A stretch of DNA of 64,000 bases, taken from the IMG/VR virus record IMGVR_UViG_3300021255_000109, positions 64,001 through 128,000 of that record. One strand, written 5' to 3'. A program made the position numbers and the translations under genes. Of this stretch, positions 1-11,796 are shown one piece after another (within the stretch, counting starts at the first letter, position 1; the number at the start of each line of letters is the position of its first letter). Source of the stretch: a virus. Lineage: Duplodnaviria > Caudoviricetes. The notes below the pieces were generated by a model, which ran no database searches, was not told the DNA's origin, and saw only the letters and a list, made by a program, of their open reading frames with translations.

Positions 1-470
1 ATGGCAAACTTCCTTATTAGCATTTCCTTGGTTTGTGCCAGGCGGCCAGCCTAACACCTAACAAGGATTATTCTCCCACTGGGAGCGTCTATTGCGGAAG
101 CGACAAGACACCGTCCTAACTTGAGAAATATATTTTGCGCTAACTACCCCCGACACCTTACGTTCGTAAGGTATCATTCTCTTGTCACCAAGAGAATGAT
201 TCATCTTCATCCTGGCTATCGTCAGGGTAGATATAGTCGACACCTAAGTGTGGTAGTTACCTCAGCACAATGGTATTTGCTCTGCACTGAGTTACACATT
301 TTTTCAAAGTTCAATAGGAATCAGTCAAAATCAGCATCGCCACGAGAAGGCTTCCTATATGATGCCATGCGGTTTTGAGGTTAACCGTAAACCTTGATAG
401 TGTGGCTCTCGCCCAAAGGAATACCCGGCCGCCGCACTCCACTCTTTGAATGATGAACTCTTCTAATCCT
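1..470 (-). ncRNA. large structured ncRNA candidate (possibly GOLLD/ROOL-like), may extend past window start
   Basis: No credible ORF. Successive hairpins, e.g. ATCATTCTCTTG-GTGA-CAAGAGAATGAT (GNRA loop on minus strand) and CCTTAC/GTAAGG. Lies downstream of tRNA-Gln. Confidence 0.5.
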
Positions 471-530
471 ACATCCTATCATATGTCTATTGGACTTACA
501 TACAATTTCTAACTGTAAAGCCGAGACAAA

Positions 531-603
531 CAGCCCCGGACAGAATCGAACTGTCACATTGCGGGTCAAAGCCGCATGCGCTCAACCATTACGCTACGGA
601 GCT
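531..603 (-). tRNA. trnQ: tRNA-Gln(TTG)
   Basis: Cloverleaf; anticodon arm TGCGG-CT TTG AC-CCGCA; T-loop TTCGATT. Confidence 0.9.
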
Positions 604-611
604 ATCTATTT

Positions 612-734
612 CAAGGCTGCTTACTTTTTGGAGTTATTAATCTTCCAATTGATTTACAATTGCTAAGCAAAAGACAGGACTCGAACCTGCAACGCATAAC
701 TTGGAATAAAGCTACTATTTGCTGTCACAGCCTT
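612..734 (-). ncRNA. skipping-rope-like element enclosing a circularly permuted tRNA (Gly TCC / Trp CCA ambiguous)
   Basis: AAGGCTG-TGA-CAGCAAAT ... CAGCCTTG; inside, T-arm and 3' acceptor precede 5' acceptor and D-arm. Confidence 0.7.
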
Positions 735-765
735 AAATATATTATAATGTTTAATTAGTTTTCAA

Positions 766-887
766 CAAGACACTTTAGAAAAATGATTATCAGTCATTCG
801 CGTCAACCATTGCGCCAATTTGCCTAAGGTGGCAAATATCGGATTTGAACCGATACTCTCTAAAAAGAGATTTGCTGTATGTGTCTT
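766..887 (-). ncRNA. skipping-rope-like element enclosing a circularly permuted tRNA-Ile(GAT)
   Basis: AAGACAC-ATA-CAGCAAAT ... GTGTCTTG; inside ATCGG-TTCAAAT-CCGAT, ATTTGCC-ACCTTA-GGCAAAT, D-arm, AATGA-CT GAT AA-TCATT. Confidence 0.8.
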
Positions 888-893
888 TTTTAT

Positions 894-1268
894 TTATTCT
901 TGAATACAATACTTTCTTACAAAATGACCATAAGACATACGATTACACATCTTATTTAACTCCTCAGTAGAATACTGACCTGCTACTAATTCATCAACAA
1001 GCGCCCAATAACAATCGACGTCGTCTCTATAGACGTCATCGTACATCTCTTCAATCTCATCTTCAGTCATATCGTCGTCGATATATTCTTTTGCCTCTTC
1101 ATCTAAAGCATTATAAATCTCAGCATAAGACTGAATAACATCAAAGGCTAAGCTAATAGCATTCTCTCTGGCTTCCTCTTCGTTGTCTGCATCAATTACT
1201 TCCATCTCATACATACCGTGTAAACCACCATACATCTGGTCACAGCCATAAACTACATATCTAGCCAT
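894..1268 (-). CDS. hypothetical acidic phage protein
   Basis: 124 aa ORF, AAAGGA RBS, upstream TTGATT/TATAAT promoter. Confidence 0.8.
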   Translation of the reverse strand: MARYVVYGCDQMYGGLHGMYEMEVIDADNEEEARENAISLAFDVIQSYAEIYNALDEEAKEYIDDDMTEDEIEEMYDDVYRDDVDCYWALVDELVAGQYSTEELNKMCNRMSYGHFVRKYCIQE

Positions 1269-1359
1269 TGATTATAATTTCCTTTCTTTTTTTATTTTAC
1301 ATAAATATTATACCAAATTTTTTCTAAAAAATCAATTTAAACTTTTTTATTTGTGATAG

Positions 1360-1434
1360 TCGGGGTGACAGGATTCGAACCTGCGGTCTCGTGATCCCAA
1401 ATCACGCGCCTTAACCAAACTGGGCCACACCCCG
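1360..1434 (-). tRNA. trnP: tRNA-Pro(TGG)
   Basis: Cloverleaf; CGTGA-TT TGG GA-TCACG. Confidence 0.92.
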
Positions 1435-1438
1435 TAAG

Positions 1439-1995
1439 TAGGAGAGATGGGAATCGAACCCATGACCTCAGGTTTGATTCCAAGATGTTATTCATTAATT
1501 ATTTTATTCACCACCTTTTCTAATTCATATTCAGTAGCAAATGTAATTCCTCTAATTTGTCCATTCTTAGGCGGAATAAATCTTAATCTTTTTATCCCAG
1601 AACTACAACATTCATCTACTGGAATTAAATAAGTTTTACCTTCATAAGAAGTCATAAAATAATCAATTTGTTCTTTTGTATAGGCATGTTTTACAAACTT
1701 TCCATTTCTCGTAGTTTTATTTGCGGTATTAAATTCTATATATCCGTTGTCTATATGTGAAGTATTAGCTGTTTTAACTTGAATTTTATAAAATTTATTA
1801 TTTATTTCAACTACGAAATCATAACGTTCACAATCTCCATATGGAGTTAAAACATTATAACCTAATTTTAAAAATGATAACATACATTCTACTTCTGTAA
1901 TATTACCTTTTTGTTTTGACATTAACATATTGTTAATAATCAATGAATAATTCTTTGAATCAGACCTGCACTCTAACCTTCTGAGCTACTCTCCT
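1439..1995 (-). tRNA. trnI: split tRNA, most likely Ile(GAT); exons about 1959-1995 and 1439-1475
   Basis: 5' half AGGAGAG..CAGGT-CTGAT and 3' half AA-ACCTG..TTCGATT..CTCTCCT-A flank a ~483-nt insert. Confidence 0.75.
1488..1943 (-). CDS. PD-(D/E)XK endonuclease inside the tRNA insert (group I intron-associated PD-(D/E)XK-like family)
   Basis: Motifs KGNITE...YDFVV...KIQVKT...IDYF; true start may be an ATG at about 1928 or 1922. Confidence 0.8.
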   Translation of the reverse strand: MIINNMLMSKQKGNITEVECMLSFLKLGYNVLTPYGDCERYDFVVEINNKFYKIQVKTANTSHIDNGYIEFNTANKTTRNGKFVKHAYTKEQIDYFMTSYEGKTYLIPVDECCSSGIKRLRFIPPKNGQIRGITFATEYELEKVVNKIINE

Positions 1996-2006
1996 ATATT
2001 TATATC

Positions 2007-2087
2007 CAAGGCACTTAAAGTGAGCACATTTGTATAAGTAAAAGTTATATAATTTGCATCCTTGTAAATATTTGCTGTATGTGCCTT
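2007..2087 (-). ncRNA. skipping-rope-like element (no tRNA cargo)
   Basis: AAGGCAC-ATA-CAGCAAAT...GTGCCTTG directly downstream of promoter at 2105-2142. Confidence 0.7.
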
Positions 2088-2139
2088 AAATTTCTTATTT
2101 CTTTATCTTACTAATTATATCAAAATTTTTCTAAAAAAT

Positions 2140-2265
2140 CAACTTGCGGGTACTTTCCGCGACAGCCGCTTAACCAATTCGACTTTCTTAGCTTTCACTA
2201 ATGAGAACCTCACGCATTGTCGGTCTTGTCCTCCCTATCGTTAGGCTTCCACTTGCCGCAAGTTG
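2140..2265 (-). ncRNA. structured RNA candidate closed by 10-bp stem
   Basis: CAACTTGCGG...CCGCAAGTTG terminal inverted repeat with internal hairpins. Confidence 0.45.
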
Positions 2266-2272
2266 ATTTTAG

Positions 2273-2391
2273 TGGGGGACAGAGGACTCGAACCTCCAAA
2301 CACCGGCTCCCTAAGCTTTGTAAAAATTGCTGACACGGTTTTTATTCAAGACCAGACATAACGGCGGCTTTTCCTATTTGCCTAATCCCCC
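2273..2391 (-). tRNA. Leu-like tRNA whose anticodon arm is interrupted by an inside-out skipping-rope element
   Basis: GGGGGAT/GTCCCCC acceptor, GGC/GCC D-arm, GGAGG-TTCGAGT-CCTCT T-arm; insert GGTCTTGA-ATAA-AAACC-GTGT-CAGCAATT then ..CT TAG GG.. Confidence 0.65.
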
Positions 2392-2394
2392 AAA

Positions 2395-2466
2395 TACCGG
2401 ATCTCGGATTCGAACCGAGAAAACAACCTTCGTAGGGTCGCAGTTTATCCATTAGCTTAATCCGGC
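2395..2466 (-). tRNA. trnR: tRNA-Arg(ACG)
   Basis: Cloverleaf; CGACC-CT ACG AA-GGTTG. Confidence 0.88.
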
Positions 2467-2658
2467 TTATGCGCGCTCGATTGGCGTCAAGCGCACGACT
2501 TCATATGCGCCAACATATGAAGGTTTTGGTTTAATATCGGGAAAACCACGACACGCCTCAAGAGCAATGCCAAAACCCGCAAGCACTTACCTCTTAATCC
2601 GTCTATTGCCTCGCTTCTCATCTTCGAGCATAAGCTACTACAATCGCTTTTAAGAGAA

Positions 2659-2730
2659 TATCCCAGAAAGGACTCGAACCTTCATCCAATCGCTTAGAAG
2701 GCGATTGCTCCTCCATTGAGCTACTGGGAC
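2659..2730 (-). tRNA. trnR: tRNA-Arg(TCT)
   Basis: Cloverleaf; ATCGC-CT TCT AA-GCGAT. Confidence 0.92.
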
Positions 2731-2912
2731 TCAATTTTTCTTTCCTTTTTTATCTTACATAAATATTATACCAAATTTTTTCCAAAAAAGCAAATCATTC
2801 TTTTTAACTGGGGGTCTTGATCGCGATGGGCTACCCCCAAGCCATGGTTTTCGGCTGGTTATCGTTGTTCACAGCTCCCGGCGAGGCTCTACGACGCTCC
2901 ACTGCCGCGGAG

Positions 2913-2985
<73 letters not shown>

Positions 2986-3085
2986 AAATGAGAGTATATC
3001 CACCGCCTCAACTCTCTATACCTGCCGGCTTTGCATCTGTGCGCACAGACCTCAGACATTAACCGATGGATTTCCAGTAGTTTAA

Positions 3086-4261
3086 TTAAATTAAGTATTT
3101 ATAAGCAAAGCTTGAACTGTAATAATTTTTAGCCTTATTAAACTCAATCTCTGCGATTTCAAAACTGTTTAAAAAAGCTTTAAGAGCATCTTTTAACTTC
3201 TTTTGTTCTTCGTTATCATCACTCAAATATTCATAATCATCATCCCAGCCAAGTTCAACCTTAGAAGGGTCAATATGATAACCATTTTCGTCAATGATAA
3301 TGTCACGAGTGTAAAATCTGACCTGAACATTATTGCAATAACGAGCAAACTCAGCAGGAAAAGCTTTCTTATCAAAATTCAGCCATTCATAATTATTTCG
3401 GTTATCAAACATATCAAGGTCTATATTCTGAGAACTTGTTGCAACTAAGCCATTTGTAAAAATAACTTTCATTGATAATACAAGATAACGCTCTCTCTCA
3501 ATATTCAAATCTAACATGGTCTCAGACAAATCATATCCCTGATTTAGTTCAAATGCAATAGCCCTAAGTACATCATATGTAAATGAAGACATACCACTAA
3601 GAGCTACAATTTTATCAATATACTGACGAGCATCTCCAACTAGATTATCATTCATATACTCTCTTACTTCGTCTCCTGTTGGAGTGCTAAGCATAAAATG
3701 ATAATGAAATCTTCCTGGTCTATTCAATAGGAAAGGACTTAATCCTCTGGTATCATTACAAGTAATAATATATAATTTCTTACCATCATCAATACCATCG
3801 AATAATGATAAAAGATTATCTTGCGGTGAATAATCACTGTCTTTATCAGTTTTAAAAGTTTTTTCGAACTCATCAAAAAGCACAATACATTCTTGATGAA
3901 TAGAAGAAATAAAATCTTCAATACCAGGCGCAGGAGTATCAACAATTAAAAGCGGTAAATTTGATTTCTTACCAGCTTCTGCTAATAAACGTGCAAACAT
4001 TGACTTACCAACACCTTTTGGTCCTGATAAGATAACACCCATATTACGATTGAAATGGCTAAAAGTATTCATAACCTTATTAACCTTTTCAGCATACGGT
4101 CCATAAACTTTTTCTCTTGTAACGAGGTCATTATGCTTAGATAGGTAATAACCTGATAACTTACTAAATTCTACTCGATATGTATCTGCGGGGAGCGACT
4201 TATATGTTTGCACATCCTCGCCATACACCATAAACTTATCGCCTGCATTAACTATATTCAT
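3086..4261 (-). CDS. AAA+ ATPase
   Basis: Walker A GPKGVGKS, Walker B VLFDEFEK, SRH LLNRPGRF. Confidence 0.9.
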   Translation of the reverse strand: MNIVNAGDKFMVYGEDVQTYKSLPADTYRVEFSKLSGYYLSKHNDLVTREKVYGPYAEKVNKVMNTFSHFNRNMGVILSGPKGVGKSMFARLLAEAGKKSNLPLLIVDTPAPGIEDFISSIHQECIVLFDEFEKTFKTDKDSDYSPQDNLLSLFDGIDDGKKLYIITCNDTRGLSPFLLNRPGRFHYHFMLSTPTGDEVREYMNDNLVGDARQYIDKIVALSGMSSFTYDVLRAIAFELNQGYDLSETMLDLNIERERYLVLSMKVIFTNGLVATSSQNIDLDMFDNRNNYEWLNFDKKAFPAEFARYCNNVQVRFYTRDIIIDENGYHIDPSKVELGWDDDYEYLSDDNEEQKKLKDALKAFLNSFEIAEIEFNKAKNYYSSSFAYKYLI

Positions 4262-7753: not shown

Positions 7754-7819
7754 CAAGACATTTTAGTTTTTCCCAAATTGGATGGCTGAGATAACAAACT
7801 TGTTTGCTGCAAATGTCTT
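7754..7819 (-). ncRNA. skipping-rope-like element
   Basis: AAGACATTT-G-CAGCAAAC...AAATGTCTTG; first element after promoter 7825-7866. Confidence 0.65.
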
Positions 7820-7885
7820 TTTTCATTTTCTATAAATATTATATCAAATATTTTATAAAAAATCAATTAAGCATTTTTTTATTCG

Positions 7886-7959
7886 TACTCAAGATGAGAT
7901 TCGAACTCATAAAACCTTGGGTTTGAGCCAAGTACGTTTACCAATTACGTCACTTGAGC
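7886..7959 (-). tRNA. trnL: tRNA-Leu(CAA), short variable loop
   Basis: CTTGG-CT CAA AC-CCAAG. Confidence 0.85.
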
Positions 7960-8310: not shown

Positions 8311-8365
8311 AAATTGACCTACCCTGGTACGCATTGTTAAGAGGCGTGATAGGTACTGATATAAT

Positions 8366-11282: not shown

Positions 11283-11796
11283 TTTTATCTTACATAAATA
11301 TTATAACAAATTTTTTCCAAAAAATCAATTTGGCGATTTTTTAATTGATAGCTATAAATACAGCATCATTAGTACCACCATCAGTTATCTCTATAATATC
11401 AAAATCGTTTGGATAATCTGAATCAAAGTTGCCCTGGATATATATTTCTGCGTCAAGGTTAGGAGCTTCTGTCAATAACTTTTGAATTACTTCTCGAACT
11501 GTCATTTTTTCTCCTTTCTTTATCTTACATAAATATTATACCAAATTTTTTACAAAAAATCAAAAGTGCAATTTTTTACTTGAAGTAGCATTGAGAGCAT
11601 CTACTAGTGTTCTTCAAGATTAGTGTTTGGTTTCTCTTCAGAAAAGGAGTGCTTGTTGATATTCGGTCTTTCAGCTCTTCATCTCCGTTACCTTCATCAA
11701 GATATATTTTAAAAGGCTACTTGAGTTTCCTTTCTTTATCTTATATAAATATTATAACAAAAATTTTCCAAAAAATCAATAATGATCTTTTTCTTT

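Follow-up and report, generated by a model that had tools for sequence, protein, structure and literature searches.

Bacterial tRNA introns are, to our knowledge, self-splicing group I introns, and protein-spliced tRNA introns are those of archaea and eukaryotes; we know of no bacterium or bacterial virus in which proteins excise an insert from a tRNA and reseal it. Archaeal bulge-helix-bulge (BHB) introns are ribozyme-free, some of those in rRNA genes carry LAGLIDADG homing endonuclease genes, and their exons are joined by RtcB. In archaeal and eukaryotic pre-tRNAs, the intron pairs with the anticodon. Among phages, the tRNA cluster of T4 contains the free-standing homing endonuclease SegB, and T4 Pnkp and Rnl1 reseal anticodon loops cut by PrrC, RtcB being another RNA-repair route. 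The I-Ssp6803I intron, a group I intron in the tRNA-fMet gene of Synechocystis PCC 6803, is 655 nucleotides (nt) long, with an open reading frame (ORF) of 150 amino acids (aa) and a ribozyme core of about 200 nt (PMC1995217). Here, a tRNA-Ile(GAU) gene split by a 483-nt insert is described in a 64,000-nt stretch of phage DNA (the window), which comprises bases 64001 to 128000 of the IMG/VR virus record IMGVR_UViG_3300021255_000109, a 180,778-bp record with direct terminal repeats. Sequence comparison shows that this insert, which lacks a ribozyme, is mobile and intron-like and that it occupies the only ordinary tRNA-Ile(GAU) gene of the phage. With moderate confidence, we read it as a mobile intron that is excised by proteins and resealed by RNA-repair enzymes of the phage. 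No description of such inserts was found in a literature search.

The element and the Synechocystis intron are alike in encoding homologous PD-(D/E)XK endonucleases of about 150 aa, in their insertion into the anticodon loop, and in the co-orientation of the ORF with the tRNA. However, the Synechocystis intron self-splices, whereas the window insert has 483 nt, of which only about 45 are non-coding, lacks a group I signature, ends in C, pairs its 3' end with the anticodon, and is phage-borne. Archaeal BHB introns share with the element the absence of a ribozyme, paired ends that present the splice sites, an intron 3' end that pairs with anticodon-loop bases and, in some cases, a homing endonuclease. 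The phage element differs from them in having no BHB, in its position at 36|37 instead of 37|38, in the absence of EndA from 17 phage genomes, and in its Bacillota hosts.

A first-pass annotation of the window had read the locus as a tRNA gene split in the anticodon loop by an insert that is nearly all PD-(D/E)XK ORF, with ends that pair and extend the anticodon stem, and that neither has space for a group I or group II core nor shows signs of one. These readings hold in the analyses given here and below. The minus strand of the window, on which all of the features described here lie unless otherwise stated, carries an array of more than 30 tRNA genes, in which ARAGORN, with introns allowed, reported one split tRNA (1438-1995) with a 483-nt insert. 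The borders were read off the sequence by hand, beside the ARAGORN call. The 5' exon (1959-1995) contains the 5' strand of the acceptor stem, the D arm, the 5' strand of the anticodon stem, and C32 U33 G34 A35 U36. The insert (1476-1958) lies between tRNA positions 36 and 37, and the 3' exon (1439-1475) contains A37 A38, the 3' strand of the anticodon stem, the variable loop AGGUC, the T arm, the 3' strand of the acceptor stem, and A73. Joined at 36|37, the exons were called tRNA-Ile(gat) by ARAGORN with a score of 122.0, and they form a cloverleaf with the 7-nt loop CUGAUAA and A73. The body of the gene (A1-U72, A73, and variable loop AGGUC) resembles what we take to be the features of bacterial tRNA-Ile.

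The same program labeled the interrupted gene Asp(GTC), which is an artefact. Uninterrupted alleles were sought with a 22-nt pattern spanning the Ile junction, and two phage contigs (L096 and L097) carry an uninterrupted tRNA-Ile(GAT) gene, called tRNA-Ile(gat) by ARAGORN and followed by tRNA-Pro(TGG) as in the window. The anticodon loop of both reads CTGAT^AA (GCAGGTCTGAT^AAACCTGAGGTC), which fixes the identity as Ile(GAU) and the insertion point as exactly 36|37. The two genes differ from the window exons by three compensated pair changes in the acceptor and T stems. The first-pass annotation had favored Ile(GAT) and had regarded the splice register as ambiguous; the identity stands, and the ambiguity is removed by these two alleles. 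A 40-nt junction pattern for an empty or spliced allele of the window's own exons had no match in metagenome contigs, and a 30-nt pattern from the 5' exon had no match in viral contigs. No other ordinary tRNA-Ile(GAU) gene is present in the window's genome. A tRNA-Ile(GAT)-like sequence lies at 665-887, which ARAGORN reads with a 77-nt insert and for which Rfam returned weak matches to tRNA (27.2 bits) and YrlA (26.4 bits). The "permuted tRNA-Ile" at 766-887 within it appears to lie in a Y-RNA-like stem with its acceptor end closed by a linker, and in this form it probably cannot be charged.

The ORF of the insert spans 1488-1943 and has 151 aa if started at the TTG at 1943; starts at the ATG at 1928 or 1922, giving 147 or 145 aa, are likelier. 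TAG was read as glutamine solely for listing ORFs. By profile comparison, the encoded protein is an I-Ssp6803I-type PD-(D/E)XK homing endonuclease (PF11645). The ORF matches Pfam family PF11645 (PDDEXK_5) with an E value of 5.6e-29, and a profile built from 18 members of the family matches I-Ssp6803I (PDB 2OST) with an E value of 1e-16, aligned via the PxGD, YD, and QVK motifs. D42, Q55, and K57, which form the catalytic D...QxK motif, are invariant among 18 homologues. About 440 of the 483 nt are coding, leaving about 30 non-coding nt upstream of the ORF and 12 nt downstream. In a tRNA-Pro(UGG) subfamily (L068-L076, e.g., L073:9923-10827), the inserts are 790 to 850 nt long, and a cysteine-rich (CxxC) segment either comes after the nuclease ORF or is fused to it.

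Protein and profile searches retrieved 44 viral loci, in about 30 of which the nuclease gene lies inside a split tRNA. In total, the family contains at least 44 distinct inserts of 380 to 900 nt in tRNAs with at least 10 anticodons, and it is carried by phages that infect Bacillota of the gut and rumen, among them Enterococcus phage EFP01. Six contigs of Bacillota metagenome-assembled genomes also have the element and resemble phage tRNA arrays, and an exact 21-nt motif at the 3' end of the Asn subfamily was found in 18 further metagenome contigs, some from the human gut. A scan of genome contigs yielded only these six and no sole, essential chromosomal tRNA carrying the element. Several nuclease inserts may share one array, with three or four in L054 (in Met CAT, twice in Lys TTT, and one more) and three in L088 (Met, Gly, and Thr).

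The suggestion that the insert is a homing element agrees with the occurrence of alleles with and without it at one exact site, both in the window versus L096 and L097 and in EFP01 versus phages EFDG1 and phiSHEF16. EFP01 carries a 463-nt insert in tRNA-Asn (KY549443.1, 105242-105777, corresponding to L066:9935-10470); EFDG1 and phiSHEF16 have a gene identical to this tRNA-Asn but uninterrupted (CTGTT^AACC), and about 30 further Schiekvirus records match the EFP01 locus with just the insert missing. At this locus, the GenBank record of EFP01 lists only a "hypothetical protein", and the interrupted tRNA-Asn is unannotated. In both the window and the EFP01 comparisons, the insertion is exact, with no target-site duplication. 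Moreover, insert identity can far exceed exon identity, as in L042 and L043, whose inserts are 98.5% identical but whose tRNA-Asn exons are just 84% and 67% identical. Because of the family membership and the presence and absence alleles, homing is proposed at the DNA level, in which the endonuclease would cut, near the anticodon, those tRNA alleles of co-infecting phages that lack the insert, and recombinational repair would copy the element into the cut allele.

Related nuclease genes also occur outside tRNAs. Homologues about 30% identical are free-standing and adjoin tRNA-Ile or tRNA-Asn in Pectobacterium phage My1 and Salmonella phage PM10, and the homologue in Escherichia phage 241 is free-standing inside a tRNA cluster. 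In records G032 and G033, the nuclease lies just 3' of an intact tRNA-Pro(UGG), and the related nucleases of L075 and L076 lie inside tRNA-Pro(UGG). The My1 and PM10 genes belong to the same protein family as the window nuclease (PDDEXK_5), they too are found beside tRNAs, and the homing logic is presumably shared. However, they lie between intact tRNAs in phages without RNA ligase or RtcB, whereas the window nuclease gene is not free-standing and interrupts an anticodon loop, where it is accompanied by an RNA rod.

This rod is formed by the ends of the insert and continues the anticodon stem. In helix 1, the anticodon GAU and the first six insert bases (1953-1961, GAUUCAAAG) pair with the last nine insert bases (1476-1484, CUUGGAAUC), of which the final AUC complements the anticodon; eight of the nine positions are paired (GATTCAAAG/CTTGGAATC). 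Helix 2 has 16 bp, including one G.U pair, between the 5' untranslated part of the insert (1935-1950) and a segment that overlaps the last nuclease codons and the TAA stop (1488-1503), and its 3' strand is followed by a conserved unpaired CAU (1485-1487). The whole 558-nt RNA of the window's split gene folds as a cloverleaf plus rod, with a z score of -4.89 versus shuffled sequences. Across the family, the layout consists of helix 1 (6 to 10 bp), a small internal loop, and helix 2 (12 to 18 bp), in which the 5' untranslated stretch pairs with the last ORF codons and closes the ORF loop.

In our own parse, all 44 distinct inserts lie at 36|37 and have last three bases complementary to the anticodon, e.g., GAT/ATC, GTT/AGC, TTT/AAA, CAT/ATG, TGG/CTG, CTT/AAG, GTC/GAT, and CCA/TGG (anticodon/insert end). 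The equivalent of helix 1 thus covaries with the anticodon across 44 elements and at least 10 anticodons. A DNA-level rationale for the anticodon complement, either target-site duplication or priming by a 3' overhang, was considered and rejected, the orientation being wrong. In an alignment of 18 Asn and Lys elements to the cloverleaf plus rod, 92.6% of cells are paired versus 66.8% after shuffling, and the covariation score is 0.684 versus 0.211, with none of 500 shuffles reaching 0.684; controls in which the partners were slid by one to three columns gave 40 to 48% pairing. In 24 of 27 distinct elements, the hairpin is more stable on the sense strand than on the antisense strand (mean, -17.2 versus -11.7 kcal/mol), and the P value of 1.5e-5 (Wilcoxon) is only indicative since the 27 elements are related. 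Mismatches in the rod are G.U on the sense strand and A.C on the opposite strand. Because of this placement of the mismatches and the greater stability of the sense hairpin, the rod is considered to act as RNA, and the comparisons indicate that it is an RNA-level feature under structural selection.

Once joined, the exons of the interrupted genes equal intact tRNAs in quality. All 27 distinct exon-joined sequences were called tRNAs, with a median score of 116.9, compared with 115.9 for 285 intact class I tRNAs of the same loci. At 27 of 30 loci, no intact tRNA with the same anticodon was found within 10 kb, including in arrays with 26 to 31 anticodons. In L053, the ORF is broken by stops, and the exons and rod are intact.

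A search for RtcB or an RNA ligase elsewhere in the genome, which the first-pass annotation had named as a check, gave a positive result. RtcB is absent from the window's phage, which encodes on the minus strand, outside the window (G000:C1:46500-51520; L095), an RNA-repair cassette comprising a phosphoesterase, a polynucleotide kinase (AAA_33, phrog_505), a metallophosphoesterase, a nucleoside deoxyribosyltransferase-like protein, a 457-aa RNA ligase, and four small unannotated ORFs. The ligase matches phrog_968 (E value of 7e-62) and, weakly, PF09414 and PF21189, and it has an N-terminal OB domain. The survey of ligases covered 17 records at least 90% complete, namely, 15 with a non-decayed in-tRNA element, G022 (with the decayed L064 copy), and G032 (with a free-standing nuclease). 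All 15 records of the first group encode either RtcB (G009, G010, and G024, which is EFP01) or an ATP-dependent RNA ligase plus an AAA_33 kinase, the kinase being near the ligase wherever positions were compared. In a forward check of less complete records, G028, G029, and G030, which have Pro-type elements, encode a ligase, and G025 gave a weak hit only. In contrast, RtcB, PF09414 above the cutoff, and PF09511 were found in none of five phages with free-standing nucleases (G032, G033, My1, PM10, and phage 241). A single universal phage ligase was considered and rejected, since homologues of the 457-aa ligase occur in only 13 of 33 records; any RNA-sealing route was considered instead. The ligases are a permissive background and not a marker of the element.

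Whether bacterial viruses possess protein-only tRNA splicing is, on this sequence evidence, evenly balanced in our judgment. In such splicing, the rod would direct an endoribonuclease to the bonds 36|i1 and n|37; this enzyme could come from the host, be a phage protein that has escaped recognition, or be the intron's own PD-(D/E)XK protein. RtcB or a kinase/phosphoesterase/ligase set would then rejoin the loop. The split gene would be co-transcribed with tRNA-Pro, and the cloverleaf would fold. The ends of the insert would then form the rod, with helix 1 pairing the anticodon and first insert bases with the last ones and helix 2 closing the ORF loop. The putative endoribonuclease, guided by the rod, would cut at 36|i1 and n|37, and phage enzymes would reseal the 7-nt anticodon loop; these would be the polynucleotide kinase, metallophosphoesterases, and RNA ligase in the window's phage and RtcB in others such as EFP01. 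Because both sealing routes join 2',3'-cyclic-phosphate and 5'-OH ends, such ends would be expected. T4 tRNA repair is comparable in its kinase, phosphoesterase, and ligase genes, RtcB being the counterpart elsewhere, and in the proposed last step, the sealing of a broken anticodon loop. However, the break in T4 is made by host defense in a host tRNA, whereas here the enzymes would presumably act on a tRNA of the phage itself, completing the excision of an insert. RNase III, RNase P, and RNase Z were considered as cutters and rejected by reasoning only, as the 3-bp stagger and the positions of the bonds misfit their known rules.

Several observations weigh against splicing by proteins. The splice sites lie within a continuous helix and not at bulges: the BHB motif of two 3-nt bulges and a 4-bp helix is absent from the folds, which near the junctions show just a 2x2 loop (32,33/37,38) and, past helix 1, an internal loop. 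EndA (PF01974) is absent from 17 of 17 element-bearing phage records, a search that covered phage genomes only and in which archaeal controls were positive. Candidates for the cutting enzyme near the ligase, proteins of 144, 170, 178, and 225 aa, had no useful Pfam or PHROG match. Decaying copies exist: L064 has three stops in its ORF and no longer has its 5' anticodon stem, the D arm of L059 is duplicated, and stems are mismatched in L042 and L044, which also have another tRNA-Asn that is intact. Derivatives that retain the anticodon-pairing rod but have no ORF were not found, as none of 96 short anticodon-loop inserts has such a rod, compared with 37 of 53 long ones. G022, with the decayed L064 copy, is an exception to the ligase pattern, having only a weak ligase-like match, and the intron-less EFDG1 and phiSHEF16 also encode RtcB. 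RNA-repair genes are lineage traits, and their association with the element may be partly phylogenetic, the genomes not being independent. Phage tRNAs are usually dispensable, and frequent homing into fresh alleles alone could keep the exons intact-looking.

Many of these points bear on a less probable, though serious, possibility, that of a selfish insertion that is not spliced and inactivates the tRNA. The cloverleaf and rod would then serve as a scaffold for trimming by RNase P and RNase Z and for the stability of the nuclease mRNA, and repeated homing would keep the exons intact-looking. The active recent mobility, the decaying copies, the lack of ORF-less derivatives, and the absence of both a ribozyme and a known bacterial tRNA-splicing endonuclease are all consistent with this possibility, as are the RNA-repair genes of intron-less relatives and the distant homologues that are ordinary free-standing genes by tRNA genes. 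However, a mere closing stem would not need last three insert bases that are re-tuned to at least 10 anticodons, and exon quality equals that of the intact neighbors. Furthermore, the split gene is usually the sole gene for its anticodon in near-complete tRNA sets, the exons and rod of L053 have outlived the ORF, and nucleases inside a tRNA were found only in phages that encode an RNA ligase or RtcB.

A special case of protein splicing, in which the intron's own PD-(D/E)XK protein is the splicing endonuclease and cuts the rod at the bonds flanking the anticodon, 3 bp apart and with 3' overhangs, is unlikely. I-Ssp6803I reportedly cuts DNA with the same 3-bp stagger and 3' overhangs. The two splice sites are dyad-related through the pair of anticodon base 35, the element always contains the gene for the protein, in the same orientation as the tRNA, and tRNA-splicing endonucleases share the PD-(D/E)XK fold (PMC3424549). 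However, the D...QxK metal site predicts 5'-phosphate and 3'-OH ends, which RtcB cannot join, and EFP01, G009, and G010 have RtcB and none of the searched ATP-dependent RNA ligase families. The cyclic-phosphate chemistry expected above therefore argues against cutting by a metal-dependent intron protein, and the RNA elements of L053 are intact although its ORF is dead.

Excision by a cryptic self-splicing or self-cleaving RNA, whether by a group I or group II core that overlaps the ORF or by small terminal ribozymes, is very improbable. The ends of the insert are conserved, structured, and specific to the sense strand, and ribozyme cleavage would yield 2',3'-cyclic-phosphate and 5'-OH ends such as RtcB joins. 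However, Rfam searches of the insert (window 300-3100) found no ribozyme family at the gathering score or at E values up to 5, and L058, a family member in tRNA-Asn, had no match at E values up to 10, whereas the same group I model (RF00028) detects true group I introns. As positive controls, RF00028 identified a group I intron on the plus strand of the window (52743-52985, 106.5 bits) and a 218-nt insert in a tRNA-Leu(UAA) of a related phage array (L052; 47.4 bits, E value of 3.9e-11). Group I introns have a 5' exon ending in U, an intron ending in G, and a catalytic core of P3 to P9. The final base of the window insert is C, not G; family-wide, each of the four bases occurs at the end of the insert, and each also occurs at the end of the 5' exon. 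The about 45 non-coding nt, with no Rfam match, do not accommodate the six domains of a group II intron, which take several hundred nucleotides and include domain V, and the ORF has a G+C content of about 28% as judged by eye.

The insert of L052 (L052:11827-12132) is one of several phage tRNA-Leu(UAA) inserts of 208 to 225 nt located after U34 (also L038:2624-2908 and L073:7680-7991). Since it fits the group I model, phage tRNA genes do contain group I introns; in a 2014 review, by contrast, all phage introns then known lay in protein-coding genes and none in tRNA genes (PMC3984707). A conserved CUGA/CUGAUG loop in the Asn subfamily was compared with the K-turn, box C/D, and hammerhead motifs, all of which were rejected on spacing; as an RNA motif it was also set aside, as its conservation is partly that of the ORF stop codon and the loop is missing in the window's subfamily.

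A purely DNA-level element, with terminal inverted repeats acting as transposon-like ends or as a cruciform for a resolvase-like nuclease and with incidental RNA pairing, is scarcely credible: the anticodon stem, helix 1, and helix 2 do form an imperfect inverted repeat of about 30 bp, and I-Ssp6803I resembles the Holliday-junction resolvase Hjc (PMC3384342), but the sense strand is clearly more stable, with the repeat mismatches being G.U there, the helix 2 sequences diverge freely between copies yet stay complementary, and the insertion is exact without target-site duplication.

Directly downstream of the split tRNA-Ile lies tRNA-Pro(UGG) (1359-1434), and the Ile-Pro order also occurs in phages with the uninterrupted gene. 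No terminator-like site was found between the two genes. A promoter-like site (TTGATT-17-TG-TATAAT), identified by consensus match only, lies upstream of the split tRNA at 2114-2142; a near-identical site recurs along the array at 1307-1335, with a third look-alike at about 2755-2790. Other features of the array include a tRNA with a 45-nt anticodon-arm insert containing CAGCAA (2272-2391), an abiF RNA motif amid the tRNAs (8317-8353, 39.1 bits), and, at the end of the array, a ROOL RNA (RF03087; 1-315, 149 bits) truncated by the window start. In a related phage contig, a transfer-messenger RNA with the tag AKPYRLAA lies inside the tRNA array (L096:2404-2752). A separate class of anticodon-loop inserts of 57 to 75 nt has a T-arm-like hairpin (e.g., GAGTTCAAGxCTC) and does not obey the 36|37 pairing rule (L069:7410-7549 and 7800-7931, L073:8966-9104 and 11489-11634, L057:5518-5666, and L041:10897-11045).

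If the element is not spliced, it would be a natural tRNA-scaffold expression device for a selfish gene, and many phage tRNA genes would have been missed or miscalled by annotation, as with the Asp call in the window and the unannotated tRNA-Asn of EFP01. If it is spliced, this would be a third route of tRNA intron removal in the bacterial world and would give phage RtcB and Pnkp/Rnl genes a housekeeping role, the "tRNA repair" enzymes of phages doubling as splicing ligases. A homing endonuclease gene could then inhabit tRNA genes of many specificities without a ribozyme, and the element would offer a present-day parallel for the possible origin of the protein-spliced mobile introns of archaea. 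Phages of the gut and rumen carry the family in abundance, and with the culturable Enterococcus phage EFP01 among its carriers, the question is directly testable.

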